Shown one piece after another: positions 10,217 through 60,638 of a stretch of DNA of 64,000 bases. Position numbers and translations under genes: made by a program. The DNA lies in assembly GCA_036172245.1 (NCBI GenBank), contig JAYWIR010000108.1, forward strand, positions 62,001-126,000, written 5' to 3'. The first letter of the stretch is position 1; every line of letters starts with the position of its first letter. The notes beneath the pieces are model-generated. The model did not search any database, had not been told where the DNA came from, and was given only the letters and a program-made list of their open reading frames with translations. The stretch is from Raillietiella orientalis. Taxonomy: Eukaryota.

Positions 10217-10429
10217 TTGAAACCCGGGTGCGCCGGGAGGTTTATTTTAAAGAATAAACTTATACAATCTGTGACTGGACCAGTAGTCCAGCCACGCCCT
10301 GGAAAGATATAGCCTGCCGGGCTACCGGTGCGCAGACCGGCGCGGTCGACCTCGGCAGCAGAGGGGAGGGGGAACGAAACAAAAAGAAAACAAAAAATAA
10401 ACAAAAATCAGGGAGGGAGCGGGAAGGAA

Positions 10430-13400: not shown

Positions 13401-14007
13401 GCTGATCAAGGTACACGTGATCGATGCTTTCCATGGCCGTGTCCCCGGCCAACAAGTTGCGCGTGTTCATTTCTGCGCACAACTCGTTGACGCGGTCGTT
13501 CAGTGTATCCGGCGCACCTGAAAGCAGGCGCAGGTTGAAATCACCTGCGATCAGGTGCGCTTTGCGAACTCCTGCATCGGTCAGCCAATCGCGTCGCAAG
13601 GCAAGGTAGAATTCCCTTCTTGCCTTCGCCTTCAACCCCTTATTTCCGCTAGGAGCGTATAGGTTGGTGACGACCAGGTCGATAGAGTCGGACCAGCTGA
13701 GAGTCAGCTGACCGACGCGACCTGCGTCATCGATCCGAACGTCCTTTATTGCGGCGTCGATGGCTGGCCGAAGCAGGAAGGCGACACCGCTTGATTTCGC
13801 GGTGCCGCAACGCCACAACAGCCGCCCACCCAAGATACGTTCGATCTCCCGGACTTGATCTGCGGAGATCACGTGGATCTCCTGCAGCAGCACCAGGTCG
13901 GAGGATGCCAGGGTGGCGGCCACGTCACGCCTCTTGCCGTCGTCGCTTAGCCCGTTCACGTTCCAACAGGCGATCAGAAGACGACGCCGAGAGGCGATTC
14001 CCGGCAT
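10430..14007 (-). pseudogene. ORF2 APE-RT-Zn finger, disrupted
   Basis: Collinear ORFs 13033-14007, 11953-12813 and 10430-12061; YADD lost by a 1-nt deletion. Confidence 0.92.
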
Positions 14008-15664: not shown

Positions 15665-15747
15665 TTCTGCCTAATCCTCCACCCACACCACGCAAAAGCA
15701 CCAACGGAAATAAAACTCAGGAGCAACGAAAAGACACGTCCGCTTGA

Positions 15748-18700
15748 CGCTCCGGAATCTCCAGGACTGGGACCTATTTAAGGAATCGGTCCGCGAGTTC
15801 TGTGAGCAGTTCCCCCTGGATCGCCTGCCCCCCGGATTCGGCGAGAATGCTCGCAACCATCGGGCCTATTTACAGGCTCGTAGGTACGAGAGAACCCCTA
15901 ATGTCCGTCGCCTGGCCGAGTACCGCGCCGGGGCCGAACGCCAAGCCTGGCAATCCGGGTCGGCCAGCTTGCTGGATGACCAGGGCCGGGAATGTTCGTC
16001 CCCGGCGTCGGTACGGCAACTCGTGCGGAGTTTCTATTCCTTTCTTTACGCCAGGGAGCCCCCGGATCGAGACGCCTCTCGGCGCTTGTTTCCGGATGGC
16101 GCCCCGGCAATAGGGGAGGAGGAGATGGAAAGCCTCGACGAGCCTTTTACCACCGGCGAAATTCTCGCCGTATCAAAAGGCTCAAGAGGCGGAAAGCTCC
16201 AGGGGAAGACGGCTTACCCGCGGAGTTCTTTCAGAGCTTCGAGGAAGAGCTGGCAGCCCTGCTGCTTAAGTTGATCAAGCTGATCCGAGACGAAGGCGAT
16301 GTTCCCGCCTCGTTTCGGTAAGCCAGAGTGAGGCTCCTGCCGAAAGGGGGAGACCTCAGGGATTTAAAGAACTGGCGTCCGATCACGATCGTGAATACGG
16401 ACGCCAAGTTGATCGCAGGGCTATGGGCTTCGCGTCTGGGGAAGGTGGCAGAATCCGTAATTAGCCCGGAGCAGACTTATGCTGTTCGCGGGCGAAGTAT
16501 GGATGCCAACCTCTTCTTCACAAGCACATGGGTGCATCTGCAGCGAAGAGAGAAGAAAGGGATAGGGAAAGTCGGCAACCCCACATTGGGGCCGCCAGCC
16601 GGGCTGGGAAGGGACCCCCGTGCGGGGAAGGGGGCCCTAGCGCTCGCAGTCGATCTCCACAAGGCGTTCGACTGTGTAGACCAGGAACTTCTCTTGAAGC
16701 TCCTGGGTCGCATGGGTTTTCCACCCTCCCTGATTTCCTACCTGCGCTCTTACTGGCGGAATGCGATAATTACCGTCTCTTTCGGCGGTCAAAAGGTGTA
16801 TGGCGTGCCGGTGCGGCGGGGCATAAGGCAGGGAGATAGCCTCAGCCCCCTGCTCTTCAGCACCTACTTTGAGTTGGTGCTGAGAGCGTACAGGGTGACT
16901 TTGGCCCCATTGCCGAGCTCGTGCCCCGGCACGCCCGCCGTAGTAGCGTACGCCGACGATCTTCTGCTTTTGTTGCTAATGTCCACCCCGGCAAAGGCTG
17001 TCGGAGATTTCTTCGATCTGCTCAGCCGCGGAACCGGACTGCAGGTTAACCGGGCGAAGTCGTCGCTTGTGCCAATAGGCGCGGCGTGGCCAGGGCAGCA
17101 GGACTGGGTCCGTCTGGGGATCCCCACGGCGAGGTGCTTCAAGTACCTTGGTGTGCCGTCGGGGGACTACTCCCCTGCGGAAGCATGGTCCAGCTGCCTC
17201 CAAAAAGTCGAGACGGCGATCGGACCGTTCCTGTAAGGCAAGTTTCACTTGCCGGAACGGGCCGCGGTTTGGAACGCCTTCGCGGCCCCCGTCCTCCGCC
17301 CCTTGCTTTTTGTTTGCCCCCCCACCGTGGAATCTAAGAAGAGGACGAAGGACCTCCTCCGTATCGCACTTTGGGGCAAGGGGAGGCCCCGAGTCCCACT
17401 AAAGGACTTGTGCGCTCGGCGTCGGGACGGCGGTCTTGGCCTCCTGACGCTGGAGCGCGTGGAGAAGCAGCTGCGGTGGCGAACCCTCGCCATCGCAGCG
17501 AAGATGTGGAGCACCCCTTGGTGCACTCCGGCCCGCCTCCTGGCCAGCCGTGTGTCCCGGTGCGATGGACTCGCGTCTTTTCTTCTGAGCCGTGGCCGGA
17601 AGATGCGAAGATGCGGCCTACTCCTCGGGCGCATGGCAACATTGGCCAAGCAGAACAGCTGGATGGTTTGCTGCCCCGCCAACTCCCCCGCCTGGCTGGA
17701 GGAGAATATTGGAACGTGGGCAGTAGTTAACCAGAGAAGCCACGAGACGTGGAATCGTCTCCGATGCAGCCTCTACGCCCGCTGCACGCTGCGGAATCTC
17801 CTGGAGAGTCCAGCAAGATGCACGTGGGCAGAGACGACCTGTCTAGCTACGGCGCTGCCCTTCCTGAAGAGGGCACTTCACAGCAGCCGGACGCCAAGGT
17901 GGCAAGTCTCCTGCTGCTTCGGGGGACGCGAAAAGTTGATCAGCCGCTGGACAACAGGAGAACTGGCTGACGCCACGACCCCGAGCGTCCAGCCGCGAGG
18001 ATTATTAAGATGGGGCGAGCTGCTCGCCATCCCCAGGGATGAGCTGAAGTGGCCCCCGGTGATGAAGGAATCCAGGATCCTGCCCCTCAAGTGGTAAGAT
18101 TCGGCGTTGCTTTTGTTGCATTGGGGTCTACCCTGCAACGCGCGCCGCTTCCACTGGACGAGGGGAGCTGTGGATCCTGCGTGTGCCAGGTGCGGGGAGC
18201 GGGAGTCGCTTCCCCACCTTATTGTGGATTGTGCTGCCCTCCGACCCCTTTGGGGACGGTTCGCGACGACCCTCGGGCTCCCTACTTGCAGCACCCCCAG
18301 AGACGTTCTTCGGCCCCTCTTCGTGAAGGACGCACTGCAGCCAGCCGCTGCCATCGCAGCATTGTGCTGCGTCCGTGGCATCGTGGGGGCATGGAGCGAC
18401 GCCAACAACGAAGGAGTGGGTGCACAGGCGAGGGATGTCATCTTGTATGCCAAACGCTTCTTGCGAAGAGCTGCCGGAAGGGTCCAGCTGGGGAATATGC
18501 AGACTGACCTCGAGGGCTTAGTTCGACGAATGGGGCCTCCCCGAAGCGACCAGTGATCCCTTCCCTGCCCTCCAACTTCTTTTTGTTTGTTTCTTTTTAT
18601 TTTACGTTTTGTCTAATCCCCATTCCCCTTCGCTGTCGGGGAGTGCCACGCCGGGCTGCGTCCCGGTGTCCCGACAGGTCCTGTGTTTACGGCCGTGGTG

Positions 18701-24068: not shown

Positions 24069-24200
24069 TTAGAGGACACGAGGAAATGTGAATCCTAAGT
24101 GTACTGAATGTGATGATCGAGAATCCCTCCCGCACATTTTAGTTACTGTGTTGCCCTCCGGTTCCTGTGGGAACGTTTCGGTACCACCATAGGGTTCTTG
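24069..24200 (+). mobile_element. Remnant of ORF2 C-terminal Zn-finger region
   Basis: TRGNVNPKCTECDDRESLPHIL...CVALRFLWERFG. Confidence 0.7.
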
Positions 24201-29758: not shown

Positions 29759-30546
29759 AGCCTTGCTCCAAGTGGTGACGATCCCGCTTAGGCAGCACAA
29801 AGCTGCTAACAAGGCCGCTGGCCGAAGGACGTCGGCAACGAAGAGGGCTTTCAGTGCGTCCCTGGGGTTGCCGCAAAGGATTTCGATGGCCGCGGCAGAG
29901 CGAAACCTAACGGACCAAAGGGCAACACAATCAACTAGCAGATGGGGGACGGACTCCCGTTCCCCATACCTGAAGCAATTGGGGTCCACCGCTTTCCAGG
30001 TCCAGTAATGTCGGCGGGCGTTGCAGAGGAGTTCCCAGTGCTGCAACAGCAGAGCCGACTCCTGCCATTTTAAGGGGAGGGCGGAAGTGTTCATGAGCAC
30101 CGGGGGCCACTTCAGATGTTCAATGGGAACATCGAGCAGCGCGCCCCAGCGCAGAAGTCCATTGGGAGGCGTACTCGGGGTCGCAGCGTCTGTTAACTGG
30201 CCCGTCTTTCACTCTCCTATCTTCTTCTGCTTTCCGGAGATTGTTACTCTAACCACCCACTTCGCCGCAACATCGCTGTCCAGATCTTTCATCAGGGAGG
30301 GCAGCGCAATAGCGAGGGGGGTTCTTCCTGCCCACGCTTAATTCTTTGGATCCTCCAGGATCTCGCGGAGCGTGGGACTTCTGTAACCCCCAAACAGGAA
30401 CCTTCGTTCCTGTTGGGAGCGTTGCATGCCGAACTGTCCCCACGTTCGAACGGTTTCCTGCAATCAGGCACTACCGTTAAACGGGCGACAGGTGTGCAAT
30501 CCTAGGTTTTTTGATACAGCGCAACCACCCTCCGTAGCTAAAGTCC

Positions 30547-33192
30547 TCATCGGTTGACGTGGCGACGGAGTGCAAGAAACGACGTCAGTCCCGTCTTGCC
30601 GGTGGCTTGCTGGAGAAGGAGACGTGCAGGGACGCACCAACAGGTGCACCACAACTCTGCAACGAGTGCCGACAAGCGGAACTGGAGCTGAAGCTCCAGG
30701 CGCTCAAGCGTCAGGGGGCCCAGACCACCATCCCGACGAGGAGCGCACAAGTCCTTTAAGAGGACTCGGGCCCTCACGTTGCCCCAAAGCGCGATACAAA
30801 GGAGGTCCTTTGTCTGCTTTTCAATCCTCTCTGTGGGGGGGCAAACAAAAAGCAGGGGGCGGAGGAGAGGAGCCGCGAACGTGTTCCAAACCGCGGCCCG
30901 TTCAGGCAGGAAAAACCTGCCGCCTCGGAACGGGCCGATCGCCGTCTCTACTTTTTGAAGGCAGCCGGACCACGCTTCCGCAGGGGAGTAGTCCCCCAAC
31001 GGCACACCAAGGTACTTGAAGTACCTCACCGTGGGGATCCCCAAACGGACCCAGTCCTGCTGCCCTGACCGCGCCGCACCAACTGGCATCACGGACGGCT
31101 TCGCCCTGTTCACCGTAATTCCGGTACCCCGATGCAGCAGGTCGAAGAACTCCTCGACCGCCGCAGCCGGAATGGACATAGAGAGCAGCAGCAGAAGGTC
31201 GTCCGCGTATGCTGAAACGGCCGGCGTACCAGCACACTCGTGCGGCAGGTGCGCCAGAGTTCCCCTGTACGCTCTCAGTACCAACTCAAAGTAGGTACTG
31301 AACAGCAAGGGGCTCAGGCTGTCTCCCTGCCGGGTCCCACGCCGCACCGGCACGCCGTGCACGTTCTGCCTGCTGAAAGTAACATTGATGAGCGCGTCGC
31401 GCCAGCAGGAGCGCAGATAGGCCAATAAAGAGACCGGGAAGCCCAAGCGTTCCAGAAGCTCCAGAAGGAGATTCTGGTCGATGCAATCGAATGCTTTTCG
31501 CAAGTCGATTGCGACCGCAAGGGCTCCCTCCCTCACCCGACCATCCAACCCCTTGCCGGCGCACGCACCGGAATTCCGGCTGCGCACCAAGCTCCTTTCA
31601 TGTTGGAGCTCTAGCCAGGTGGAAGCGAGGAAAAGGTTTGCCTCCATGCTTCGCCCTGGAACAGCATATGTCTGTTCCGGGCTGATGAAGATTTTGGCAA
31701 CACGTCCCAGACGCTCTTGCCAAACCTTAGCCACCAACTTGGCGTCCGCATTCACTATTGTAATGGGACGCCAGTTGTTCATGCTCCTCAGATCTCCTTT
31801 CTTAAAGAGGAGCCGCAGCTTTGCCGAACGAAACGAGGCGGGAACGTCACCTGTTTCGCGTATCAGCAAGGTGAGTTGCTGTACCAGGGGGGTAAGCTCA
31901 GCCGCAAAAGTTTGATAAAACTCCGAGGGCAGGCCGTTTTTTTCTGGAGCCTTTCGCCTCTTGAGCTTTCCGATGGGATAGAGGTTCTCGTCCATCGTGA
32001 AGGGGTCGTCGACGGTCTTTCTCTGCTCCTCCCCTATCGCTGGAACGCCTTCGGGAAGCAGGAGTCGTGAGACGTTCCTCTCCGGAGGTGCCCTGGCATA
32101 CAGGGAGGAGTAGTAACTCCGCAGCAGGCCGCGGATTTGGGCAGGTGCCGAGTGCTCGTGGCCCTGATCGTCCAGTAAGCTGGCCAATCCGTACTGCCAG
32201 GCTTGCCTCTCGGCTCCCGCTTTGTATTCCGATAGCCTGCGGATGTCGGGGGTCCTGGCGTAACGACGGGCCTGCAGGTAGGCTCGTTCGTTACGGACCC
32301 CGGTCCCAAAACCCGTGGGTAGGCGGTGCAGAGGGAACTGGTCGCAGAACTCCTGGACCGACCGCTTGAAGCGGTCCGAATCCTGGAGTGTCCGCAGACT
32401 GAAGCTCCGTATGAACGTGCGAAGATGTTCCGCCGCGTCCGGGAGCTTCAACCAGTCCCCTGGGAGACGCCACGCTGACGAGGGGGGGCCCCTGTCGCGC
32501 GGATGGATCTCGAGGACTAGTGGGTGATGGTCGGACAGCTCGCACGGTAACCTGCCGCGCCTGCCCACGCGAGGGCACAGGTACTCGTCAAGAAACACGT
32601 ATTCAATGCTCTCTTCCATCCCCGGTGCACTGGCCAACAGATTACATGTGTGCACCGCCATGCACACCTCGTTGACCAGGCCACGCTCGTGATTCTGCTC
32701 ATCTGGTTTCAGGCGAACGTTGAAATCGCCTGCAACCAGATGGGAATTCCGCACGCCTGCTTCGGTCAGGCAGTCTCGTCGGAGGGCAAGGAAAAACACT
32801 TTCGTCGCCCTCCTGTTTATCAGGTCGTTGCCGCTCGGTGCGTACACGTTCGTGACGATCAGATCGATTGAGTCGGACCACCTGAGAGTCAGCTGGACGA
32901 CACGTCGGTGATCGTCGAACCGCACGCCCCGAGCCGCGGCCTCGACGGCTGGCCGAAGCAGGTAGGCGACACCGCAACTTTTCGCTATCCCACAGCTGTA
33001 CCATAGCCTCCCTCCGGAGATCCGTTCGACCTCTTGCGCTTGTTCTGCAGAGATCACGTGGATCTCCTGCAGCAGCGCAAGGTCCTTGGACTCCAGTAGT
33101 GCGGCCCTGTCTTGTCTCCTTTTGGCGTCTGTCATGCCGTTCACGTTCCAAACGGCGATGCGCAGACGACGGCGGGAGGAGATTCCCGGCAT
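30547..33192 (-). CDS. ORF2 APE + RT, 881 aa open (longest intact ORF; downstream C-terminus frameshifted)
   Basis: WNVNG, LQE, YAP, AGDFN, SDH, DLRKAFD, RQGDSLSP, YADD, KYLG all in one frame. Confidence 0.93.
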   Translation of the reverse strand: MPGISSRRRLRIAVWNVNGMTDAKRRQDRAALLESKDLALLQEIHVISAEQAQEVERISGGRLWYSCGIAKSCGVAYLLRPAVEAAARGVRFDDHRRVVQLTLRWSDSIDLIVTNVYAPSGNDLINRRATKVFFLALRRDCLTEAGVRNSHLVAGDFNVRLKPDEQNHERGLVNEVCMAVHTCNLLASAPGMEESIEYVFLDEYLCPRVGRRGRLPCELSDHHPLVLEIHPRDRGPPSSAWRLPGDWLKLPDAAEHLRTFIRSFSLRTLQDSDRFKRSVQEFCDQFPLHRLPTGFGTGVRNERAYLQARRYARTPDIRRLSEYKAGAERQAWQYGLASLLDDQGHEHSAPAQIRGLLRSYYSSLYARAPPERNVSRLLLPEGVPAIGEEQRKTVDDPFTMDENLYPIGKLKRRKAPEKNGLPSEFYQTFAAELTPLVQQLTLLIRETGDVPASFRSAKLRLLFKKGDLRSMNNWRPITIVNADAKLVAKVWQERLGRVAKIFISPEQTYAVPGRSMEANLFLASTWLELQHERSLVRSRNSGACAGKGLDGRVREGALAVAIDLRKAFDCIDQNLLLELLERLGFPVSLLAYLRSCWRDALINVTFSRQNVHGVPVRRGTRQGDSLSPLLFSTYFELVLRAYRGTLAHLPHECAGTPAVSAYADDLLLLLSMSIPAAAVEEFFDLLHRGTGITVNRAKPSVMPVGAARSGQQDWVRLGIPTVRYFKYLGVPLGDYSPAEAWSGCLQKVETAIGPFRGGRFFLPERAAVWNTFAAPLLRPLLFVCPPTERIEKQTKDLLCIALWGNVRARVLLKDLCAPRRDGGLGPLTLERLELQLQFRLSALVAELWCTCWCVPARLLLQQATGKTGLTSFLALRRHVNR

Positions 33193-33728
33193 TACTGCTG
33201 GGAAGATTAAGGTGTGGGGGAGCCCTCCTCTTGCGAGGCGGGAGGGATGTCCATGGGGGTTCCGGCCTTCTCAGGCACCTGAGGCACCTGTTCGGCCTCC
33301 ACCCCCTCCATCCTCTCCGTGCCCGTGCGTGGGAGTCTCTCGGGCGACGGGTCCCGAGAATTTCCCACGCTCATGGCACCCTCGCTTGCGGAAGCCATGT
33401 CTTCCTCTTCGACGGGAGAGACGAGCTTAGGTACTGTCTTTGGGTCAGCTCTGCATGTTTGCAGATGACCTCAACGTACTGACCCCCGCTGCGGATGGTC
33501 ATAGCGCTGAGCTCCTCCTCTTTCACATCGAGAGCGCGCATGAACTTCGAGAAGCCGCGCGCGCTCTCTAAAGAATATAAATTGCCTACGTTGTAGAACA
33601 TAAGGGGTTGTACCCCTCCTCTACATAGGCCGACAATTCCGCCGCGGCTGCAGGCGATGGCGCCGACACAACGGCGCTCCACGCACGCGCTGCAGCGGGG
33701 ACCGATTCTGTGGGGGCGGACGCCCCAC

Positions 33729-33811
33729 CTCCATCGCCTCTGGGGGCGACGTTGCCGCCGCCCTCTGGCTCTCCATCGCCTCTGGGGGCGGCGTTGCCGC
33801 TGCCCCCTGGC
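33729..33811 (-). repeat. 2 x 42-bp tandem repeat in ORF1 N-terminus
   Basis: Encodes QGAAATPPPEAMES / QRAAATSPPEAMEV. Confidence 0.85.
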
Positions 33812-33930
33812 CATCCCTGGTCGTCGCGTCAGGCATCGCTGCCCGATCGACCACCGAACCACACGACGCTTGCACTGGGGGAGACTTCCTGGCACGAGGA
33901 GCACCGAGAAAACACGTCCACCCTAGAGCG

Positions 33931-36035
33931 CACAAGGCGTTCGACTGCGTGGACCAGGATCTCCTGCTGGAGCTCCTGGGTCGTATGGGCTTTACCCTCT
34001 TTAGTGACCTTCCTGCGCTTTTGCTGGCGCAGCGCGCTGATCAATATCTATTTCAGAGGTCAAATGGCGTACGGCGTGCCGGTACGGCGGGGCATAAGGC
34101 AGGGAGATAGCCTCAGCCCCCTGCTCTTCAGCACCTACTTTGAGTTGGTGCTGAGAGCGTACAGGGTGACTTTGGCACCCTTGCCGAGCTCGTGCCCCGG
34201 CACGCCCGCCGAAGCGGCGTACGCCGACGATCTGCTGCTCTTGTTGCCGATGTCCACTCCGGCAAAGGCAGTCGAGGATTTCTTCGATCTGCTCAGCTGC
34301 GGGACCGGACTGCAGGTTAAGAGGGCGAAGTCGTCGGTTGTGCTAATAGGTGCGGCTTGGGCAGGGCAGCAGGGCTGGGTCCGTCTAGGGATCCCCACGG
34401 TGAGGTGCTTCAAGTACCTTGGTGTGCCGTTGGGGGACTTCTCCTTTGCGGAAGCGTGGTCCAGCTGCCTCCAAAAAGTCGAAACGGTGATCGGCCCGTT
34501 CCTGGAAGGCAAGCTTCACTTGCCGGAACGGGGCGCGGTTTGGAACGCCTTCGCGGCCCCCATCCTCCGCCCTTTGCTGTTTGTTTGCTCCCCCACCGTT
34601 GAACCCAAGAAGAGGACGAAGGTCCTCCTCCGTTTCGCCTTTTGAGGCATGGGGAGGTCCCGAGTCCCTCTGAAGGACTTGTGCGCTCCGCGTCGGGACG
34701 GCGGTCTTGGCCTCCTGACGCTGGAGCGCGTGGAGAAGCAGCTGCGGTGGCGAAACCTTGCCATCGCAGCGAAGATGTGAAGTATCCCTTGGTGCACTCC
34801 GACCCGCCTCCTGGCCAGCCTTGTATCCCGGTGCGATGGACTCGCTTCTTTTCTTCTGAGGCGTGGCCGGAAGATGCGAAGATGCGGCCTACTGCTCAAG
34901 CGCATGGCAACATTGGCCAAGGAGAACAGCTGGATGGTTTGCTGCATCGCCAACTCCCCCGCCTGGCTGGAGGAGAAAATCGGAACGTGGGCAGCGGTTA
35001 ACCAGAGGAGCCAGAAAAGGTGGAATCGTCTCCGATGCAGCCCCAACGCCCGCTGCACGCTGCGGAATCTCCTGGAGAGTCCAGCAAGATGCACGTGGGC
35101 GGAGACGACCTGCCTAGCTACGGCGCTGCCCTTCCTGAGGAGGGCACTTCACAGCAGCCGGACGCTAAGGTGGCAAGTCTCCTGCTGCATCGAGGGACGC
35201 GAGAAGTTGATTAGAGGCTGGACAACAGGAGAACTGGCCGACGTCACGACCCTGAGCGTCCAGCCGCGAGGGTTATTAAGATGGGGCAAGCTGCTCGCCA
35301 TCCCCAGGGATGGGCTGAAGTGGCCCTAGGTGATGAAGGAATCTAGGATCCTGCCCCTCAAATGGGAAGAGTCGGCGTTGCTCCTGTTGCACTTAAGTCT
35401 ACCCTGCAACGCGCGTATCTTCCACTGAACGAGGGGAGCTGTGGATCCTGCGTGTGCCAGGTGCGGGGAGCGGGAGTCGCTTCCCCACCTTATTGTGGAT
35501 TGTGCTGCTCTCCGACCCCTTTATGAGCGGTTCGGAACGACCCTCATTCTCCCTAGGGGCAGCATTCCCAGAGACTTTCTTCGGTCCCTCTTTGTGAAGG
35601 ACGCACTGCATCCAGCCGCAGCTATCGCAGCCTTGTGCTGCTTCCGTGGCATCGTGGCGGCATGGAGCGACGCCAACAACAAAGGAGTGGGTCCACAGGC
35701 GAGGGATGTCATGCCGTATGCCCAACGCTTCTTCCGGAGAGCTGCCGGATGGCCCCAGCTGGGAGATATGCAAAGAGATTTCGAGGGCTTTCTTCGAAGG
35801 ATGGGCCCTCCTCACAGCGACCAGTGATCCCTACCCTGCCCTCCAAACTCTTTTTGTTTTTTTATTTCTTTATTTTTCTTTTTGTTATTCTCCTCATCCC
35901 CTTTCGCTGTCGGGGAGTGCCATGCCGGGCTGCGTTCCGGTGTCCCGACAGGTCCTGTGTTTACGGCCGTGGTGGGGCCTTGTACCACGCATGTAGAGTT
36001 TAATTATAAACTTCCCGGGCGTACCCGGGAGATAA
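33931..36035 (+). mobile_element. Subfamily B1, RT (from HKAFD) to 3' end
   Basis: Closely similar to 16658-18761. Confidence 0.9.
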
Positions 36036-36051
36036 CCCCAAATCCATTGGC

Positions 36052-37483
36052 GAGTGGACGTGTTTTTCCTTCGCTCCCGAGTGAGTCGACAGGAAGCGGT
36101 TTTTTTCTTTGTGTGTGTTCGTGTGGAACATCGTTGGTGTCCGGTGGCAGCGATGCCAGAGGACACCACGATGGAGGTAGGTTTAGGGGAGGCTTGCCCA
36201 TCCCCACAGCATACAGAATCAGGCGCGTCCGCCCCGGAGTCGCCCTCGCCGCTCAAGGCGAGGAGCTGGAGCGCCATGGTGGCCGCGCCGAGCGCGGAAA
36301 CCATGGCAGAGATGGCGGCCCACCGGGCAGCTGGGTACAAGCCCAGCTTGGTTTACCAGGTAGGCAATCTCTTTGACAAGCGAACTGCACGCGCTTTTTC
36401 GGAAGCGCTGCAGAACGCCTACGTGTTGGAAAAGGATCTTGACGGTCTATCCGTGCTCAGCGGGGTCAGCGCGTCGAGGTTGTCTGCAAGGACATCACCT
36501 TGGCGCAAAGCTTGATTACCATTCCGCTGAACGTGGACGGACGCAAGATCCTACCAGTCACGATGGACCGCTCCGTATTGGTCCATCTGACAGGGATCAC
36601 CAGCCGTATGACGCGGTCTGCGGTTGGTGATCAGTTAAGAAAATATGGAGATGTTCACGCGCTATGGCCAAAGGCCACAATCTTCGATGGCTACGATAGC
36701 CTTTTCGGAGGGCAGGCCGCTGCGCGCGTGACAGTGAAAGAGAGGGGGCTTCCCCACAAACTAGAGGTCAATGGCGAAGTCGTAGACCTCTGGTACGTGG
36801 GGAAACCCCGCTTTTGTTGCTACTGCAATGCAGTAGGACACTTGCGCAAGCGGTGCCCGAAGATTGTGTGCCACTTATGCAAGGAGAAGGGCCACATGCG
36901 CCGCGTATGCCCTTAACGCCCCAATCCGGTGCCGCCTGCTGCAAAGAAAGCACAGGCAAAACGCGGAAAATTGGTCGAAAGACCAAAAAGAGATACTGGC
37001 CGGCAGCAGCCGCTAGCCCCTGTTCCTCCCACACAGGCGTCGGAAGAAAAACCCTTCGAAGACGCGGGAGTCCAAGACGGCTGGCAGCTGGTCAAGGCCA
37101 GGAAGGAGAAAAAGGTGCCCCCCGCGGAACCCGCGAAAGCGGTCAAAAAGACAGCCGGCAAGGCGAAAAAACCTGGGCCGCGCTCTAAGACCATGCGGGA
37201 GTGTACGGTGGCACTGGAGCGCATAGCCGTTCCCGAGACTGCCACCGGGGGCGACGAGCCTTCCCTCGCCGTTTCCGCTGCGCCCGAGGCTCCCGACGGC
37301 GAACCCTCTGTTTACACAGAGGGTGAGCCGCGCGAAATACCGACGGTCGAGGCCGAGGACGCCGCGTTCGCTCAGGTGGCGGAGGAGCTCGCGGCTACGC
37401 TGGCCGAGCGTGGGAACCTCTCGCGCGAGGCCGTGCGAACGCCGGCTATTGCGAAAAAGGCCCCCACAGGTGAGTTGGACCTG
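36052..37483 (+). mobile_element. Subfamily B1, 5' UTR and ORF1 (frameshifted, 3'-truncated)
   Basis: GGACGTGTTTTT at 36056; 36660-37480 near-identical to 8185-9000. Confidence 0.9.
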
Positions 37484-38595
37484 TGGCAGCGAGGGAGGGC
37501 ACGGCACGCGTCGAACCCTCGCGCTCGTTTCGAATTGGCTTCCCCGTCGTGACTTTCCCCTTTCGGGGCGTTGTGGGCGGGGATGCTTTCTTTTCATCCG
37601 CGGATCGCTCGTGGTTTTTTGCGAGTTTTTGCGGACGACGTTTTTTATTTGCCGCTGAGGCTTTTCGTGCAGCGGTGTCTTGAACCTGACGAATTTCCGC
37701 TGCGGCTCTTTTTCTTGCAAGTACCGGGCACTTTTTGATTTCGTGCCCGGAATCTTTGCAATAGCGGCATCTTGGAGAGGTGCACTCTTTAATTCGGTGC
37801 TTATCCTTGCCGCACTGCTCGCACGCGCCCGTTTGGCCTATGAACCACAGGTGAACGACCGTGTCGTTCACCTGCAGCTGCTCAGGCACAACACGCCTGT
37901 TCGCGACGGTAATCCGTGCGGAGGCTTGTTCGATGTGGACAGTGGAGAAATCCTTGAAAGGGTTCGGACTCCTCCACAGGACGTGCACGGTGGCGAACTT
38001 CGGTAGCACGCTTACAACATCGCGGTCGGAGATTTCCGGTTCGATGTCGCACAATTGAACGGCAAAAGAGTTGTCCATCACAGAGGGCAGGACTTCCTTG
38101 CCACCGATGGACAACGGAGTACGGAGAAGACGCTGCACAAGTGCCGCGTTTTTACATTGTATCTTGGTGTATTGCATCCGGCCCGCAGGCATGATGGGAA
38201 GAAGCTCCTCCTCCCGAACGCCGATCCGGACGGGATCATCGTTGAGCTCACGCCCGGTCCTCCCGTTAAGGGGCCCACTGAGCTTATAACGGAGTGCAGG
38301 CATGTAGCCAGATGTCACATCAGCCTGCAATTCCGCATTGCAGGGTCCTTCTCCTTGGGAGGTGACGACGGCGTAGCTCCTCACCGAAGGCGAGGAAACC
38401 GTGGCGGTGGATGCGGCCGCTTCCATTCCAATTTTATTGGATTCAACGGCTCTCTCCACCACATCATTCCCAGAAGTGGCCGTGCTGCACAACGCTTCTT
38501 CGTATACTTGCAAGAAACGCAGAAGTGCGAGCGAAAACGCACGCACAAAGATGCTCGATCGAGGACGCGGAGAGACGCGAAAACACGTCTGCACT
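37484..38595 (-). mobile_element. D/F-group 5' UTR and 5' part of ORF1
   Basis: AGACGTGTTTT; CEQCGKDKHRIKEC, CRYCKDSGHEIKKC; homologous to ORF 3241-4950. Confidence 0.88.
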
Positions 38596-38637
38596 GTGCG
38601 AGCGCAGGAGATCGAACAAATCTCCAGAGGGCAGCTA

Positions 38638-39218
38638 TTAACCTCCCGTGTGCTCCAAGGCGTTTATTAAAAACTATCCGGAAACAGGGCTCCTGGACAA
38701 AGGGGAAAACAAAATACTAAGGGGGTAGGATCCCCGACACGCAGGTGGGTATGGCGAAAGTCCGGAACGAAAGGGAAGGGACCACAAATAGACTACTATA
38801 AAAAACTAAAAATAAAAATATGGTGGGCAGGAGACAGGTGTCTTTGGTGAGTCCGTGACTACCTTTCAAAGCCGGCGATGGATGCCGGAGATCTGTCTCA
38901 TTACGTCCTGTGGCAGATGTGCCCACTCGGAAGCCGACGACATGCTCGCGCACGCTAATCCGGTGGCCTGACGAAAGACGGCCAGCTTCTCCAACACTCG
39001 GTGGGCCTTTTTGATGGCGCGGATGCAACACACGGTTACAACGTCAGCACCCAAAGACAGGCCGCATGACGTGAAGAACCGGCGCATCAAGTCCCTCGAG
39101 GTGTCCAACTGGTGCAGGAGAGCTGAGGCCAGCCTCCGCCAAAGTCCATGGAAGGCACCGCAGTCCAGCAGCAGGTGCGGGAACGTTTCCACTTCCTTGC
39201 ACCGCTTACAGTTTGGGG
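38638..39218 (-). mobile_element. Subfamily D, 3' fragment
   Basis: ETFPHLLLDCG; D-type 3' UTR. Confidence 0.88.
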
Positions 39219-42200
39219 GAACCCATTAGTTCTGGAGATCCATCCGCGCGACAGGGGCCTCCATTCGTCAGCGTGGTGTCTCCCAGGGGACTGCCTGAAG
39301 CTCCCGGACGCGGCGGAACATTTCCGTACGTTCACACGGAGCTTCAGGCTGCGGGCACTCCAGGATTGGGACCGCTTCAAGAAGTCGGTCCAGGAGTTCT
39401 GCGACCAGTTCACTCTGCTCCGCCTACCTACGGGTTTTAAGACCAGGATCCGTAACAAACGAGCCTACCTGCAGTCCCGCCGTTACGCTAGGACCCCCGA
39501 TATCCGCAGGCTGGCGAAATACAAAGCGAGAGCCAAGAGGCAAACCTGGCAGTCCGGATCGGACAGCTTGCTGGACGATCAGGACCAGGAGCATTCAGCA
39601 TCCACCCAAATCCGCGGCCTGCTGCGTAGTTACTACTCTTTCCTGTATGCCAGGGCACCTCCGGAGAGGAAAGTCTCACCATTCCTACTTCCGGAAGGCG
39701 CTCCAGCGATCGGAGAGGAGCAAAGGAAGACCCTTGCCTAGCCCTTCACGATGGACGAGATCCTCTCGTCCATCGGAGAGCTCAAAAGGCGCAAGGCTCC
39801 AGAAAAGGACGGCCTGCCCGCGGAGTTTTTTCGAATTTTCGCGGCTGAGCTTACACCTCTGGTACAGCAACTCACCTTGCTGATACGCGAAACAGGTGAC
39901 GTTCCCGCCTCGTTTCGTTCGACAAATGTGCAGCTCCTCCCTAACGAAGGAAAACTGAGGAGCATGAACAACTGGCGTCCCATCACAATAGTAAATGCGG
40001 ACGCCAAGTTGCTGGCTAAGGTTCGGCCGGAGCGTCTGGGACGGTTTGCCATCATCTTCATTAGCCCGGAACAGACATATGCTGTTCCAAAGCAAAGTAT
40101 GGAGGCGATCCTGTTCCACGCTTCCACCTGGCGAGGGCTATAACAAGAAAGGAGCTTGGTGCGCAGCCGGAATTCCGGTGCGTGCGCCGGCAAGGGGTCG
40201 GATGGTCGGGTGGGCGAGGGAGCCCTTGCAGTCGCGATCGACTTGCGCAAAGCCTTTGATTGCGTCGAACAGAATCTCCTTCTGGAGCTTCTGGAACGCT
40301 TGGGCTACCCGGTTTCATTAGTGGTCTATCTGCGCTTTAGCTGGCGCGACGCGCTCATGAACGTTTCTTTCAGAGGGCAGACCGTGGACGGCGTACCGGT
40401 GCGACGTGGGATCCGGCAGGGAGACAGCCTCAGCCCCTTGCTCTTCAGTATATACTTTGAGTTGGTAATGAGAGCGTACAGGGGAACTCTGGCGCACCTT
40501 CCGCACGACTGTGCCGGTACGCCGGCCGTTCCAGCGTACGCCGACGACTTTTTGCTGCTGCTCAATATGTCCACCACTTCTTCGGCGGACAAGGAGTTCT
40601 TCGACCTGCTGCAGAGGGGAACCGTACTTACTGTGAACAGGGCGAAGTCGTCCGTGATGCCAGTTGGTGTGGCTTGGGCAGGGCAGCAGGACTGGGTCCG
40701 TTTAGGGATCCCCACAGTGAGGTTCTTCAAGTACCTTGGTGTGCCGTTTGGAGACTACTCCCCTGCGGAAGCGTGGTACGGCTGCCTCCAAAAAGTAGAG
40801 ACGGCGATCGGCCCGTTCCGAGGCGGCAGGTTATTCCTGCCTGAACGTGCCACGGTTTGGACCACGTTCGCAACTCCTCTCCTCCGCTTCCTGCTTTTTG
40901 TTTGTCCCCCTACAGAGAGGATAAAAAAGCGGAAAAAGGATTTCCTTAGTATCGCCCTGTTGGGGCAACGGGAGGGTCCGAGTCCGTTTAATGGACTTGT
41001 GCGCTTCTCGTCGGGACGGTGGTCTGGGCCTCCTGACGTTGGAGCGGCTGGAGCTTCAGCTGGAGTTCCGAATGTCGGCACCTTTTTCAGAGTTGTGGTG
41101 CACCTGTTGGTGCGTCCCTGCACATCACTTTCACCAGCAAGCCACCGGCAAGACGGGACTGACGTCGTTTCTTGCACTCCGTCGCCGTGTCAACCGATGC
41201 GGACTTTAGCCTCGGAGGGTGGCTGCGCTGACACGGAAATACCAAGGATTGGTCACCTGTCGCCTTTTGAACGGTAGTGCTTGGTCGCAGGAAACCGTTC
41301 GAACGTGGGCACAGTTCGGCATGCAACGCTCCCAACAGGAACGAAGGTTCCTGTTCGGGGGTTACAGAAGTTGCACGCTGCGCGAGATCCTGGAGGATCC
41401 AAAGAAGATAGCGTGGGAAGAAAGAACCCCTTTCGCTGCTGCGCTGCCTTCCCTGATGAGAGATCTGGACAGCGATGTTGCGGCGATGTGGGAGGTTACA
41501 TTAACAATCTTCGATAAGAAGAAGAAAATAGGAGAGTGGAAGAAGGGCCAGTTAACAGACGCTGCGTCCCCGAGTACGCCTCTCCATGGAATTCTACGCT
41601 GGGGCGCGCTGCTCGACTTTCCCATTCAACGTTTGAAGTGGCCCCCGGTAGTAATGAACATCTTTATTCTTCCCTTGAAATGGCAGAAGTCGGCTCTGCT
41701 GTTGCAGGACTGGAAACTCTTCTACAACGCGCGCCGACCCCACTGGACCTGGGGAGCAGTGGACCCGAATTGCGTTAGGTGTGGGGAACGGGAGTCCCTC
41801 CCCCACCTGCTTGTGGATTGTGTTGCCCTTGGCCCCTTTGGTTCCTCTTTGCCGCGGCCATCGGAATCCCTTGCGGCAACCCCAGGGACGTTCTGAAAGC
41901 CCTCTTCTTTGCCGACGCCTTTTGGCTAGAGGCCTTTTTAGCAGCGCTGTATTGTCTTCGCGGGATCGTCGCCGTCTGGAGCAGGGCTACAAGAAAATCA
42001 CACGACCAGGGTGCCATCGACCCAGCCTTCCATTTTCTGAGGGCGTCGCGATGGCCTCACCTTGATGCAGGAATACAGAAGGAGCTTGCCGGCATCCTGC
42101 AAAGGATGCAACGGCCCCACCAGTTACATTGATCCCTTCTCGTTCCCTTTCACTTTTCCTTTTCTTTTTTTTGGTTTTGCTTTTTTTATTTCCCCATTTT

Positions 42201-42352
42201 CTCTGCTACCGTGGTGGACCGTACCGGTCTGCAAAGCGGTGATTCGGCAGGCTCTATGTTTCGTTTTGCGTAGCTGGAGCAATGGTCTAGCCACTGCATG
42301 TCTTTGTTAAAGTTTTTCAATTAATAATCGCCTTGGCGAAATCCGGCAGAAA
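39219..42352 (+). mobile_element. Subfamily H, 5'-truncated
   Basis: Linker, RT (YADD), Zn finger, 3' UTR; similar to 29.76-32.5 kb. Confidence 0.9.
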
Positions 42353-45211
42353 ATCTAATCCCTTATGCAAGTCTACTGCTACTGCCAAGGCTTTCAGCCT
42401 TTTTGCCGTCCGGCTGCACTGACGCTAGCGGTCGGTAGAAGGTCTGCTGCTCGGCTGTCCGCCGCAACGTGCTCTAAGAGCTGCCACGAGGTGCGCGCCA
42501 AAAGAAAGTTCGCATTCATGGATCTTCCCGGTACAGCGTAAGACTGCTCCGGGCTTACCACGGACTCCGCGACTTTCCCTAGGCACGTGACCCACAGCCT
42601 CGAAAACAACCTGACGTCCGTATTCACTAACATGATTGGACGCCAGTTGTTGAACAGATCTCCTCCTTTCATAAGGAGAAGGACCCGCGCTGAGCGGAAG
42701 GAAGAAGGGACATCGCCCGTCACCTTCATCAGCGTCGAGAGCCTTAGCACCAGGGAGCGAGTTACGCCGCGAAGCTCTGAAAGAACTTCGCGGGCAACCC
42801 GTCCTCACCTGGCGTATTCCGGCTCTTGAGTACTACGATGGCGGAAGAAACTTCCTCCAACGAGAAGGACTCGCAGAGACGGGCGCGTTCCTTCTCGCCG
42901 ATGCCTTGTTCACTTCTCGTCAGAAGCTGTTCCGAGAGGATTCTCTCCGTCTGGCATTTGGCGTAGAGCAAGGAGAAGTTACGCCTCAGTGTTCGCCGTA
43001 CTTCGGCATTAGTCGTGCATTCCCGTTTGGTCTTCGATTAGAATAGCCGTTTCAGACTGCCAGACCTGGCGCTCGGCCCTCGCCTTGTACTCTGCGAGGT
43101 GCCGGACTTCCGCACGTCTAGAAAAGGTGCGCGTTTGCAGAAATTCTTTGCTATTGGCCACGCCTTCTCAAAGCCGCGCGGTAGAAAGTGCAGGGGAACC
43201 GGTCGCAAAACTCGCGAACTGATCTTTTAAGATGGTCCTAGTCTACGAGCTGCTGGATGGCAAAGCCGCGAAGAAAGTGGCGAAGATGCTCCGCCGCCTC
43301 CAGATGACTGAGCCATTCCGCCGGCATCCTCCAACCGTTGTTCGGAGGTCCCTTGCCCGGCGGATAGTAGCTCGAACTCCAGCCTATCATGGTCGCATAA
43401 CGTGGACGGCACCCTGGCTCTCCTTCTCACTGGTGAGTGTAGGTGTTCATCGAGGTAGACGTGATCCACGCACCTTTCCAGTCCAGGCTCGCCGGCTTCC
43501 GGGTTACGCGTGTGCACCGACGCGCATGCCTCTTCCACCCGCGACCGTTCCGCCAGGGACCACGTCTCGCTGGAAAGCAGGTGGACGTTGAAGTCCCCAG
43601 CGACGAGATGCGCCACTCTGGCTCCGGAGTTCCTAAGTTACTTGCTCCCCAGCACGTCGAAGAACTCAATTCATTCGGCGCGCCGATAAAAGCCCCTTGG
43701 CGCGTAAACGTTCGTCATTACGAGGTCGATTGAATCTGACCAATTGAGTACAAGTTGGCCTATTCTCCCTTTCTGGTTCAATCGAACGCTGCGCACCGCT
43801 CCCGCTATACTACCATTAATGAGAAATTCGACTCCGCACGATTGTGCAGAACCTTCTCGCCCGTACAGGGTGCCAACCGCGCGCTGTTCAATTACGGCAA
43901 CCTCCGTGTCGGAGATGTAATGGATCTCCTGAAGGATCGCCAAGTCGAAATGTCGCAGGGTGTCTGACACGCCGCGCTTCTTTCCGTCCGTGCGCAGCCC
44001 ATTAACGTCCCAACAGGCTACGCTGAACCGACGAAGAGAGGCGACTTCTCGCATTAACGCTGGCAAGGTGAGCACAGGTTTCTTGTCCTGTCCGGCGAGT
44101 GGTCACAAGACAGATCGGCAGATCCTGGAGACTGGACAAATCCGTTTAAAACCTCCCTGCTCTTTGCCGGTAGCTCCTAAGTGAGGTCGATCCCCTCCCC
44201 TTTGCTCCCCGGCAACAGATCCTCTTCGGCAACCACGCCCTTGCGGGTCTTCGGGAGGCGATTGCGCGGTTTCGGGCGGTTGTCGCTCTGTGTGCTCTTT
44301 CTGTCGGACTCTGGATCAGAATGCGGCAGTCGAGCGCTTGCCAGGCGCTACTTCTGTTTCCCGGAATTGGGAAAATCATTTGCTTCCTGTTTTTTAGCGC
44401 TTTCTGCTACTGCGGCTGGGACTTTCGTCCTTTTAGCCGCTGCAGCAGCTCTCTGCTCCATCCACGAGAGGATGACTGCACAGGGGGAAAGGATCGCAAT
44501 CTTTTTTGGGGATGGTTTCGCGGGTTTCTTTAGCCCACTCACCTTCACACAGAGCTGCGAGGACCTCGATGGTTTCTTTTTAATTCCTTTTCTCACCTGC
44601 ATCCAGCCGTCTTCCTTCGCGTCGCAGTTATCTTCGCCATCCTTAGATGGCTCTGCGTCCGCGGATGTAAGAGGCTCTGCCTTGGCTGCCTCTTGAACTG
44701 CTGCCTTCGCGCAGGCGTAAGCGACTCCCTTAGCGATCGCGAGAGGCGCTGCCTTTTTCAGATCGGTGGATTCGCGCTGTGCCTTTGCGACCGCTGGAGG
44801 CACAGCTGTAGCGGTTGTGCTCGCTCTAGCAGTTTCTTCCTTGGCCGCAGTCGGCGCTGCGTCCGCGCGCGAGCGCAGCGGGTTTGCCGGCTGTTTCGTC
44901 GCGTTACTCGGTGCCCGGGGCACCTTGGCCGCGGTAGGTTCAAGCGTCACGGAGTTTTTTGCCCGCAGGCGCGATTTTCCCGTATCGGGCGAGCGACCGC
45001 ATTCCTCGACACTTGCCGAGTTCTCGATAGGAGGCTTCGCGATTGCAATGCCGACAGCAGGAGGCTTCTTGCTTTTCGGCGCACTCTCTCCTGCTTTGAA
45101 AAATTCGCTGCGAGGTTTAGGTGAAAGTTCGCCTTCTTCGCGAGCTTCCGTCGGCTCGGTAGCCTGAGGCTTCGCCGCGCCGAGCGTTTTTCTGTTTTTC
45201 TCCCCTTTTTT
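42353..45211 (-). mobile_element. D/F-group decayed element, ORF1 tail-APE-RT up to motif A
   Basis: TAATG at 44052-44056; AGDFN; NWRPIML; ends DLHKGLD. Confidence 0.85.
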
Positions 45212-47628
45212 GTGAAGAAGAGGAGATCTGAGGAGCATGAACAGCTGGCGTCCCATCACAATAGTGAATGCGGACGCCAAGTTGCTAGCAAAGGTTTGGG
45301 CAGAGCGTCTGGGGCGGGTTGCCAACATCTCCAACAGCCCGGAACAGACATATGCTGCTCCTGGGAGAAGCATGGAGGCGAACCTGTTCTACGCGTCCAC
45401 CTGGCTAGAGCTCCAACATCAAAGGAGCTTGATCCGCAGTCAAAATTCCGGTGCGTGCGCCGGCAAGGGGTTGGATGGTCGGGTGGGGGGAGGAGACCTT
45501 GCGGTCGCAATCGACTTGCGGAAAGCATTAGATTGCGTCGACCAGAATCTCCTTCTGGAGCTTCTGAAACGCTTCAGCTTCCCGACATCATTAGTGGCCT
45601 ATCTGCGCTTCTGCTGGCGCGACGCGCTCATCAATGTTACTTTCAGCGGGCAGACCATGCACGGCGTGCTGGTGCGGCGTGGGATCCGGCAGGGAGACAG
45701 CCTGAGCCCCTTCCTCTTCAGTATCTACTTTGAGTTGGTACTGAGAGCGTACAGGGGAACTCTGGCGCAGCTGCCGCACGACTGTGCCAGTACGCAGGCC
45801 GTTTCAGCATACGCGGACGACATTCTGCTGCTGCTCTCTATGTCCACCTTGGCTGCGGCGGTCGAAGCGTTCTTCGACCTGATGCATCGGGGAACCGGTC
45901 TTACGGAGAACAGGGCGAAGTCGTCCGTAATGCCTGTTGGTGCGGCGTGGGCAGGGCAGCAGGACTGGGTCCGTTTGGAAATCCCAACGGTGAGGTACTT
46001 CAAGTACCTTGGTGTGCCGTTGGGGGACTACTCCCCTGCGGAAGCGTGGTCCGGCTGCCTCCAATACGTAGAGACGGCGATCGGCCCGTTCCGAGGCGGC
46101 AGCTTTTTCCTGCCTGAACGGGCCGTGGTTTGGAACACGTTCGCGGCTCCTCTCCTCTGCTTCCTGCTTTTTGTTTGCCCCCCCACAGAGAGAATTAAAA
46201 AGCGGACAAAGGACCTCCTTTGTATCGCCCTTTGGGGCAACAAAAGGGCACAAGTTTGCTTAAAGGACTTGTGCGCTCCTCGTCGGGATGGTGGTCTGTG
46301 CCTCCTGCCGCTGGAGCGGCTAGAGCTTCCGCTCCAGTTCCGATTGTCGGCACTCGTTCCAGAGTTTTGGTGCACCTGTTGGTGCGACCCTGCACGTCTC
46401 CTTCTCCAGCAAGCCACCGGCAAGACGGGACTGACGTCGTTTCTTGCACTCCGTCGCCGCGTCAACCGATGCGGACTCCAGCTACGGAGGGTGGTTGCGC
46501 TGTATCGGAAAAACCCAGGATTGCTCACCTGTCGCCCTTTGAACGGTAGTGCCTGGTTGTAGGAAACCGTTCGAACGTGGGGACAGTTCGGCATGCAACG
46601 CTCCCAACAGGAACGAAGGTTCCTGTTTAGGGGTTACAGAAGTTGCACGCTCCGCGAGATCCTGGAGGATCCAAAGAAGAGAGCGTGGACAGGAAGAACC
46701 CCTCTCGCTGCTGCGCTGCCCTCCCTGATAGAAGATCTGGACAGCGATGTTGCGGCGAAGTGGGAGGTTTCAGTTACAATCTCCGGAAAGGAGAAGAAGA
46801 TAGGACAGTGGAAGACGGGCCAGTTAACAGACGCTGCGTCCCCGAGAACGCCTCCCAATGGACTTCTGCGCTGGAACGCGCTGCTCGATGTTCCCATTGA
46901 ACATCTGAAGTAACCCCCGGTGCTCATGAACACTTCTGCCCTCCTCTTAAAATGGTAGGAGTCGGCTCTCCTGTTGCAGCACTGTGGACTCCCCTGCAAC
47001 GCCCGCCGAAACAACTGGACCTGGGGAGCGGTGGACCCCAATTGCGTCAGGTGTGGGGAACGGGACTCCTTCCCCCACCTGCTAGTAAATTGTGTTGCCC
47101 TTCGGCTACTTTTATTTCGCTTTGCTGCGGCCATTGGAATACCCTGCGGCAACCCCAGGGACGCACTGAAAGCCCCCTTAGTTGCCGACGCCCTTCGACC
47201 AGCAGCCTCGTTAGCAGCTTTGTGCTGCCTACGCGGGATCGTCACCGCTTGGAGCAAGGCTACGGGAGGACCACGCGACCAGGGTGCCATCCATCCAGCC
47301 TCCCAGTTCCTGAGGAGAACGTCCCGATAGCCCCACCTGGATGCAGGAATACAGAAGGAGCTTGCCGGCCTCCTGCAAAGGATGCAACGGCCCCACCAGC
47401 AACTGTGATCCGTTCCCTTACCCTCCCAACTTTTCTTTTCTGTTTTTTTGTTTTGTTTTTTGTTTTTCGTTCTTCCCCTTGCTGCCGTGGTGGACCTTAC
47501 GGGTCTGCGTACCGGTGACCCGGCAGACTCTTTGTTTCTTCGTGCGTCGCTGGAGCAATGGTGCAGCCACTGCAGGTCTTTGTAAATGTTTGTTTTATAA
47601 TAAACGCCCCGGCGAAATCCGGGTCAAA
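45212..47628 (+). mobile_element. Subfamily H, 5'-truncated
   Basis: RT ORF 45237-46562 (YADD); 3' end AATAAACGCCCCGGCGAAATCCGGG. Confidence 0.9.
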
Positions 47629-47899
47629 ATCGAACGCCTTGTGGAGATCGACTGCGAGCGCTAGGGCCCCCTCCCCCGCTCAAGGTTCCCTTTTCAGCCC
47701 GGTTGGCGGCCCCAATGTGGGGTTGCCGACTTTCCCTATCCCTTTCTCTTCTCTTCTCTGCAGGTGCACCCATGTGCTCGCGAAGAAGAGGTTGGCATCC
47801 ATACTTCGCCCGAGAACAGCATAAGTCTGCTCCGGGCTAATTACGGATTCTGCCATCTGCCCTAGACGCGAAGCACATAGCCCTGCTATCAACTTGGCG
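47629..47899 (-). mobile_element. Subfamily B1 RT fragment (AKLIAG..DLHKAFD)
   Basis: Matches 16403-16672 in reverse. Confidence 0.85.
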
Positions 47900-60630: not shown

Positions 60631-60638
60631 ATTTCATG

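Follow-up and report, generated by a model that had tools for sequence, protein, structure and literature searches.

Junctions of an L1-like LINE subfamily with the reverse transcriptase motif A of related elements in a nested cluster of Raillietiella orientalis

A 64-kb stretch of Raillietiella orientalis DNA (NCBI GenBank assembly GCA_036172245.1, contig JAYWIR010000108.1, positions 62,001 to 126,000 of the forward strand; hereafter the window) consists of a near-continuous nest of copies of a single L1-like family of retrotransposons without long terminal repeats (non-LTR retrotransposons), with a GC content of about 56-62%. In a preliminary description of this sequence, one subfamily of these long interspersed nuclear elements (LINEs), called H, was singled out as having its ends at the codons for motif A of the reverse transcriptase (RT) of other elements. 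The question raised by the locus is whether these elements insert at a fixed site within the coding sequence of their relatives, and whether H is alone in doing so.

The elements of the family carry a first open reading frame (ORF1) with CCHC knuckles and a second one (ORF2) that encodes an apurinic/apyrimidinic (AP)-type endonuclease, an RT and a C-terminal Cys/His motif. In ORF2 of copy H1, Pfam recognized Exo_endo_phos (amino acids 40-187, 9.1e-8) and RVT_1 (amino acids 491-757, 2.4e-20), both above the cut-offs. This order, an endonuclease followed by an RT, identifies the H family by its predicted domains as a LINE (non-LTR retrotransposon) with an AP-type endonuclease. The copies of H were defined by blastn and trees, and throughout the text sites are numbered after the amino acids of H1 ORF2.

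H termini at the codons for motif A

Direct reading of the junctions showed that both H 3' ends (42352-42354 and 47628-47630) and the sole H 5' end (33930) adjoin the 14-mer CAYAAGGNNTTNGA, which in another element encodes HK(A/G)(F/L)D of RT motif A (amino acid 595), and that H is antisense to the host element in all three cases. Beyond the tail of H2 (...GGCAGAAAAT) lies the reverse complement of GTA GAC TTG CAT AAG GGA TTA GAT (VDLHKGLD), and beyond the tail of H3 (...GGGTCAAAAT) that of GTC GAT CTC CAC AAG GCG TTC GAT (VDLHKAFD), while the 5' end of H1 (the reverse complement of ...GAAAACACGTCCACCCTAGAGCG) adjoins CAC AAG GCG TTC GAC TGC GTG... at 33931. The earlier observations that the H 3' ends run into antisense VDLHKGLD and VDLHKAFD, and that the 5' end near 33930 abuts bases coding for HKAFD, were in this way confirmed. 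The position of the 3' junctions is ambiguous by 2 nt because the dinucleotide AT is common to the H tail and the GAT codon of the host.

The name of the target also proved correct: AIDLRKAFD of H1 aligns with SIDAEKAFD of human L1 ORF2p and YADD with FADD, which places the target in RT motif A. The first aspartate of this motif is catalytic; the literature consulted names only D702 and D703.

The CAYAAGGNNTTNGA pattern occurs five times in the window, against 0.03 occurrences expected. All five matches lie in motif A and three of them touch an H end. Conversely, two of two H 3' ends and the single H 5' end lie at this site, and the window contains the exact terminal word of H, GGCGAAATCCGG, solely at these two 3' ends. 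LINE sequence makes up most of the window, and nesting as such is expected when LINEs insert at random in such a region. Under random insertion into the 3.66-kb ORF2, however, two further hits within 5 nt of the first and in the same orientation have a probability of about 5e-7. Together with the site pattern (5 versus 0.03 expected, three of the five at H ends) this refutes a chance coincidence at this level, an explanation to which we attach practically no weight. The clustering of H termini at motif A is real and far beyond chance, and the proposal that H sits at one fixed motif-A site of other elements, always antisense, was borne out for the three junctions.

The next point is whether these junctions represent separate events. 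Both phylogenetic trees unite H1, H2 and H3 in a clade with 100% support, with A as sister, followed by E, then C, and then a deep group that contains G, copy e3, the element at 19533-22075 and the 'D/F' host of H2; ORF2 identity between the subfamilies is 50-80%. The host of H3 had been assigned to a B1 type, but it is really a 270-bp E-type sliver (47631-47900), 92.6% identical to 16401-16670 of E-type copy e4, and the host at the H1 5' end is likewise of the E type (89.4% identical to 16658-18762 of e4, the upstream half lying outside the window). The host of H2, in contrast, belongs to the deep group. Its ORF2, about 70% identical to the G type, stops exactly at ...CAT AAG GGA TTA GAT (42353-42373). 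Because the hosts (two E-type copies and one deep D/F copy) differ in clade, the three H insertions are independent events. In addition, H1 and H3 are distinct copies, since their 2-kb overlap is only 91% identical. In short, independent copies were found at the same target in the same orientation for all three H termini, in hosts of two clades, in this one window.

A single ancestral H-in-host junction that was subsequently copied, by segmental duplication, composite retrotransposition or 3' transduction, would produce the same picture. Duplicated blocks do exist in the window, for instance the B-type copies 48531-50173 and 54920-56565, which are 93% identical. Nevertheless, such copying is largely refuted by the host phylogeny given above, and the 3' flanks of H2 and H3 agree at only 26 of their first 40 nt as compared to 83% for the H 3' ends themselves, while the divergence of H1 and H3 also argues against it. 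We consider a copied junction extremely unlikely.

Table 1. Positions in the window of the H copies, their hosts and related sites (TSD, target-site duplication).
Feature	Position	Strand	Remarks
H1	29759..33930	-	Identified by blastn, tblastn and Pfam; only H copy with a full-length-type 5' end (CGCTCTAGG GTGGACGTGTTTT...)
Target-site copy CACAAGGCGTTCGAC (HKAFD)	33931..33945	+	Directly adjoins H1 at its 5' end; the E-type host begins with these bases
E-type host of H1	33931..36036	+	Extends from motif A as far as the 3' end of the host itself, which has the tail AGATAAC
H2	39221..42354	+	5'-truncated at about ORF2 amino acid 249; motif A DLRKAFD at 40240-40260; 3' end ...GGCGAAATCCGGCAGAAAAT
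H2 host, deep-branching 'D/F' element	42353..45214	-	C-terminal half of ORF1 and ORF2 amino acids 20-595
H3	~45215..47630	+	5'-truncated at about ORF2 amino acid 490; motif A DLRKALD at 45513-45533; 3' end ...GGCGAAATCCGGGTCAAAAT
H3 host, E-type sliver of 270 bp	47629..47899	-	ORF2 amino acids ~507-595, end ...CAC AAG GCG TTC GAT
Unhit exact 14-mer CACAAGGCGTTCGA	16658..16671	+	In E-type element e4
Second unhit exact 14-mer	6479-6492
A-type element, full length, nested antisense in an E-type host	10217-15747 (with TSD 10201..15763)	-

Fixed sites of the sister subfamilies and mode of insertion

The use of a fixed site is not peculiar to H, a point that had been missed earlier. When we translated the flanks of the 13 element 3' ends in the window, it appeared that A, E, G and C each use a fixed site too, different for each subfamily and always antisense in a host ORF2. 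Both A 3' ends (10217 and 57180) follow EHLRGVPLRNL / EFLRGVTFRNL (amino acid ~296), both E 3' ends (18762 and 36036) follow LPPGFG / LANGFG (amino acid ~322), all three G 3' ends (22075, 38636 and 50171-50174) follow IAGGRL and its homologues (amino acid ~89), and both C 3' ends (1362 and 63317) follow EYSAAAE / ERTTIATA (amino acid ~379), although the second C site is only a 24-bp sliver that was matched by its likeness to the D/F sequence ECTTNAE. The sites are located in the endonuclease (GGRL), in the linker (RNL, GFG, AAAE), in RT motif A and possibly in the RT sequence 'NxDAK', and no motif was found that is common to the sites of different subfamilies. As with H, the inserted copies are more alike than the host flanks (e.g. 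93% versus 81% for A). Of the two S-type 3' ends, one runs into antisense ORF1.

Overall, long antisense LINE coding sequence follows the element 3' end at nine of the 13 junctions, and in some head-to-tail pairs a host sliver of about 15-42 bp is left between the 3' end and the next 5' end (36037-36051, 38594-38635, ~1339-1361 and ~994-1011). The sliver 36037-36051 is the reverse complement of ANGFG, the E site, and 38594-38635 corresponds to host amino acids ~79-92, beside the G site, which suggests that one host site was hit repeatedly, either exactly or close by. Of the two B-type copies mentioned above, one is cut at the G site (amino acid 89), and the other passes through the G site and is cut at the A site (amino acid 296). 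For the inverted pair 18763-19512 / 19533, twin-priming was considered and rejected, as the minus-strand fragment hosts the E-type 3' end at 18762.

All 13 3' ends carry an AATAAA signal, followed by a CCCGG-N4-6-CCGGG palindrome and a 6-9-nt tail that is typical of the subfamily (e.g. 47599-47630 and 10217-10246). A poly(A) or A-rich tail, as found in the L1 group, was absent from all 13, an unusual feature in an L1-like element. The terminal hairpin has weak thermodynamic support (z of +0.1 to -2.0 for six ends), and the palindrome is degenerate in H2.

Several marks of target-primed reverse transcription (TPRT) were found. H2 and H3 are 5'-truncated with intact 3' ends, and a target-site duplication (TSD) is present in the sister subfamily A, each H insertion itself being one-sided. 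The A-type element at 10217-15747, the sole complete two-sided insertion in the window, is flanked by a perfect 16-bp TSD, CGCTCCGGAATCTCCA, at 10201-10216 and 15748-15763. This case shows that the family performs true TPRT and makes a TSD of about 15-16 bp. The span of H from the start of the copy at the 5' junction (CAC) to the 3' junctions (GA(T)) is about 15 bp and matches the length of the A-type TSD, in line with the TSD of about 15 bp that had been expected for H from the sequence. A second copy of the TSD of the G-type insertion at 50174 was looked for and not found.

For the way in which the site is recognized, we considered targeting guided by the RNA. The last 45 nt of each element were compared with their own 30-nt flank for the 13 junctions, on the same strand and as reverse complement, and no signal of such targeting was obtained: own pairs scored 5.6 and 4.9, as compared to 5.2±1.0 and 5.4±1.1 for cross-subfamily pairs. 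RNA-guided targeting was dropped, as likeness or complementarity between 3' end and target is no higher than background. For the same reason a protein that reads the DNA, most likely the endonuclease, is the simplest explanation.

On this basis, we propose that H probably integrates by sequence-specific TPRT into the motif-A DNA of other subfamilies. The target would comprise about 15 bp, 5'-CAYAAGGNNTTNGA(Y)-3', i.e. the sense-strand DNA for HK(A/G)(F/L)D in other subfamilies of the family. The H endonuclease would nick the sense strand of the host just past ...TTNG(AT), and the freed 3'-OH would prime synthesis of cDNA on the tail of the H RNA (...AAAAU) with at most 2 nt of pairing. Since priming would take place from the sense strand of the host, H would always end up antisense to it. 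The other strand would then be cut about 15 bp off, which would duplicate CACAAGGCGTTCGA(C). The specificity would most likely reside in the endonuclease domain, as in Tx1L, TRAS1, SART1 and R1; according to the accessible part of PMC1919474, the endonuclease is itself sequence-specific in TRAS1, Tx1L and R1, and a swap of the endonuclease between TRAS1 and SART1 moves the insertion site. H would then be one case of a family-wide habit, with A, E, G and C at different fixed antisense sites in ORF2, and this habit would build the nested cluster. The nick positions, the role of the endonuclease as determinant and an exclusive use of this site by H throughout the genome are what we infer from the junctions.

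An alternative to such a specific insertion is a loose preference, in which a short nick motif is combined with a liking for the chromatin of LINE clusters and the hits in motif A are the visible part of a broader spread. In the available part of PMC1919474, the R1Bm endonuclease is described as reading only about 8-10 bp although the element is site-specific, so that other factors can contribute. A loose preference would also fit the sampling of only three junctions, all within one 64-kb window, the exact copies of the 14-mer at 6479 and 16658 that are unhit, and the irregular 5' junctions of H2 and H3, observations that equally weigh against our proposal. On the other hand, all three H termini lie at a 14-mer that occurs only five times in 64 kb, the hits agree within 2 nt of the same position and the all-or-none pattern recurs in four other subfamilies, each at its own site. 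We therefore regard a loose preference as rather unlikely.

Other observations weigh against the proposed insertion as well. No H copy has both of its junctions at the site, since H1 lacks its 3' end, the final ~370 bp being lost where the copy breaks off abruptly at 29759. In H2, the 5' end (amino acid ~249) adjoins the C-terminal part of a G-type element with a microhomology of 2-3 nt, and in H3 (amino acid ~490) it adjoins the D/F ORF1, where the microhomology is imperfect and about 10 nt long. Because these 5' ends adjoin unrelated sequence, either a multi-kb deletion of the target at insertion or a later rearrangement is needed. Other abrupt junctions that TPRT cannot make are found at 29759 and ~37450-37490, and in the C-type element at 60100-63317 the 5' junction lies at the GFG site of the A-type neighbour to the left and the 3' junction at the amino acid-379 site of a different host to the right. 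From these abrupt junctions and the mismatched host sites of the C-type element it follows that rearrangement is common in the window. Finally, the endonuclease is no more than a candidate for the protein domain that would read the H site.

The abrupt junctions just listed, including the 5' ends of H2 and H3, raise the possibility that the H junctions themselves arose not by insertion but by rearrangement (inversion, deletion or end joining), or that they reflect a misassembled repeat cluster. Homologous recombination would, however, join like positions and not the very 3' tail to antisense amino acid 595, three breaks at one 15-bp site with intact termini are unexpected from random breakage, and the sister element has a perfect TSD. 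An origin of the three H junctions by rearrangement is therefore very unlikely in our view, and sequence-specific TPRT is preferred.

Target codons and self-avoidance

The codons of H and of its hosts differ at the target, as had been noted before. The three H copies themselves read CGA/CGC/CGG AAA GCA/GCC/GCA, and the hosts that are hit have CAT AAG GGA, CAC AAG GCG and CAC AAG GCG. It had also been suggested, from the catalytic role of the motif, that the target is one that hosts can barely mutate. This holds for the protein motif, of which D589, L590, K592 and A593 are invariant in an alignment of eight sequences, but not for the DNA, which varies among subfamilies that keep the motif (CGT AAA GCA, CAT AAA GCA, CGC AAG GCG and TGC AAA GCG). 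Judging from these variants, escape by a synonymous or a histidine-to-arginine change is evidently tolerated. Moreover, targeting of sequence that is unable to mutate is not a general rule in the family, because the A and C sites are variable linker sequence.

The suggestion that the codons of H reflect self-avoidance is weak. H indeed lacks its own target and none of its three copies was hit, as compared to three of the five CAYAAGG sites (Fisher p = 0.18). When all 13 motif-A sites are taken together the numbers are three of five versus none of eight (p = 0.035), with sites that are not independent of each other. The adaptive reading is inseparable from shared ancestry, because the sister clade A also carries AAA GCA, and the AAA GCA state of H may be inherited rather than adaptive.

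A more far-reaching reading would be that the sister subfamilies each evolved a different long recognition site in the ORF2 of their relatives, always antisense, by which the family would feed on itself and build safe-haven islands, and that the synonymous and histidine-to-arginine changes in motif A that are common to the H and A clades represent immunity alleles in an arms race between transposons. We mention this as a tentative possibility, more doubtful than likely.

Relation to known systems and other features of the cluster

The closest relative of the family with a solved structure is human L1 ORF2p (E of 4.9e-40), the match to R2 being far weaker (2e-13). A protein search among 1.84 billion representatives yielded 26,210 matches at E<=1e-3; among the 150 best matches listed, only P0001 (72%) and P0013 (68%), both metagenome fragments, exceeded 36% identity. 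A smaller protein search gave seven matches, of which only P0001 (JGI) was close (71%), and an Atlas protein search gave only generic clusters of AP-type endonuclease plus RT. In a metagenome scan with an alignment of eight RT sequences, 80 loci were kept, all of them LINEs of 23-33% identity; the H terminal word was present in none of the 80 and the close relative P0001 was not among these loci. Scans of genome contigs and viral contigs found no relative. Scans of the window for tRNAs, Rfam families and tandem repeats revealed no tRNA, Rfam family, other gene or anything else of relevance.

Several known LINEs resemble the system in one respect or another. As in clusters of the Zepp type, nests in the window arise from insertion into existing copies. 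Zepp and ZeppL of green algae, which belong to the L1 clade, are described in the part of the literature available to us as L1-type LINEs that pile up as nested clusters, in tandem arrays of mostly 3' ends (PMC8226300, available in part). In the window, in contrast, the insertions are antisense, at defined codons of ORF2 and at a different site for each sister subfamily; this comparison is by description only. Cnl1 of Cryptococcus is likewise a self-nesting LINE, but in the descriptions that were accessible it nests in tandem near telomeres, whereas here the elements lie antisense within motifs encoded by other subfamilies, and the target of H is absent from H itself.

Tx1L and other sequence-specific LINEs of the Tx1 and R1 clades (TRAS1, SART1 and R1) share with the present family an AP-type endonuclease plus RT and the use of one sequence; in those LINEs the endonuclease decides on the site. 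The target of Tx1L is another transposon, Tx1D (PMC1919474, in the part available), and the accessible parts of PMC4640811 and PMC5035012 also count transposons among the targets of such LINEs. In the case of H, however, the target is coding DNA of related LINEs (RT motif A) and not a DNA transposon, rDNA, a telomere or a microsatellite. R2, which inserts in 28S ribosomal DNA (rDNA), also has a multicopy target with a conserved product, but it has a restriction-like endonuclease and a single ORF, and by the E values given above it is a far weaker match than L1.

No report was found in the literature of a LINE that targets a motif in the RT-coding sequence of other LINEs; since neither subscription journals nor Repbase Reports were covered by this search, it is no proof of absence. 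Self-nesting LINEs and site-specific LINEs with an AP-type endonuclease are already known, but we met no published case of LINEs inserted antisense at defined codons in the ORF2 of their relatives, RT motif A among them, in which sister subfamilies use different sites. Site-specific LINEs are rare and serve as models for the reading of DNA by AP-type endonucleases and as tools for targeted gene insertion. The related subfamilies, with ORF2 sequences that are 50-80% identical and that apparently read different 15-bp sites, would provide a natural swap series for specificity residues. If the proposal is correct, transposons use the coding sequence of their relatives, the catalytic motif included, as a multicopy landing pad, which would explain the growth of nested LINE islands of the Zepp or Cnl1 kind and raises the question of conflict and escape between transposon lineages.

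With respect to the H copies themselves, ORF2 of H1 is open over 907 amino acids (30547-33270), with motif A (DLRKAFD) at 31486-31506. The word GTGGACGTGTTTT, which marks element 5' ends in the window (nine matches against 1.4 expected), is present at its 5' end. In the region 33264-33930 of H1 about 1 kb of ORF1, comprising the RNA-binding and zinc-knuckle region, is missing as compared to the A-type copy at 14261-15309, and a 42-bp tandem duplication is found at 33729-33811. The left flank of H2, which was considered as a possible 3' part of the same D/F host, is 86% identical to the G type, whereas the ORF2 of the D/F element is 70% identical to it.

The region 24000-29759 has a lower GC content (45-47%) and few reading frames. 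At its end lies a divergent LINE, which has a CCHC-containing ORF1 (28063-29004) and an endonuclease (28985-29700) with 27% identity to H1. This LINE and the truncated 3' part of H1 are joined tail-to-tail at 29759, a rearrangement breakpoint. The C-type element at 60100-63317 has an internal gap, and its 3' part is 96% identical to the copy at 1362-3037; its junctions at two different hosts are not accounted for by simple insertion. At ~1012-1345 on the minus strand, a unit of about 330 bp was found in which an element-type 5' end and the start of ORF1 are fused directly to a 3' untranslated region and terminal hairpin, and which may be a short non-autonomous derivative. The E-type sliver that hosts H3 is bounded on its other side by the 5' end of a plus-strand element of the B type, which starts at 47900. 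This junction (47899/47900) lies inside the conserved RT motif ..VNTDAK.. (amino acid ~507) and may represent another subfamily-specific site, in a window that is without any B-type 3' end.

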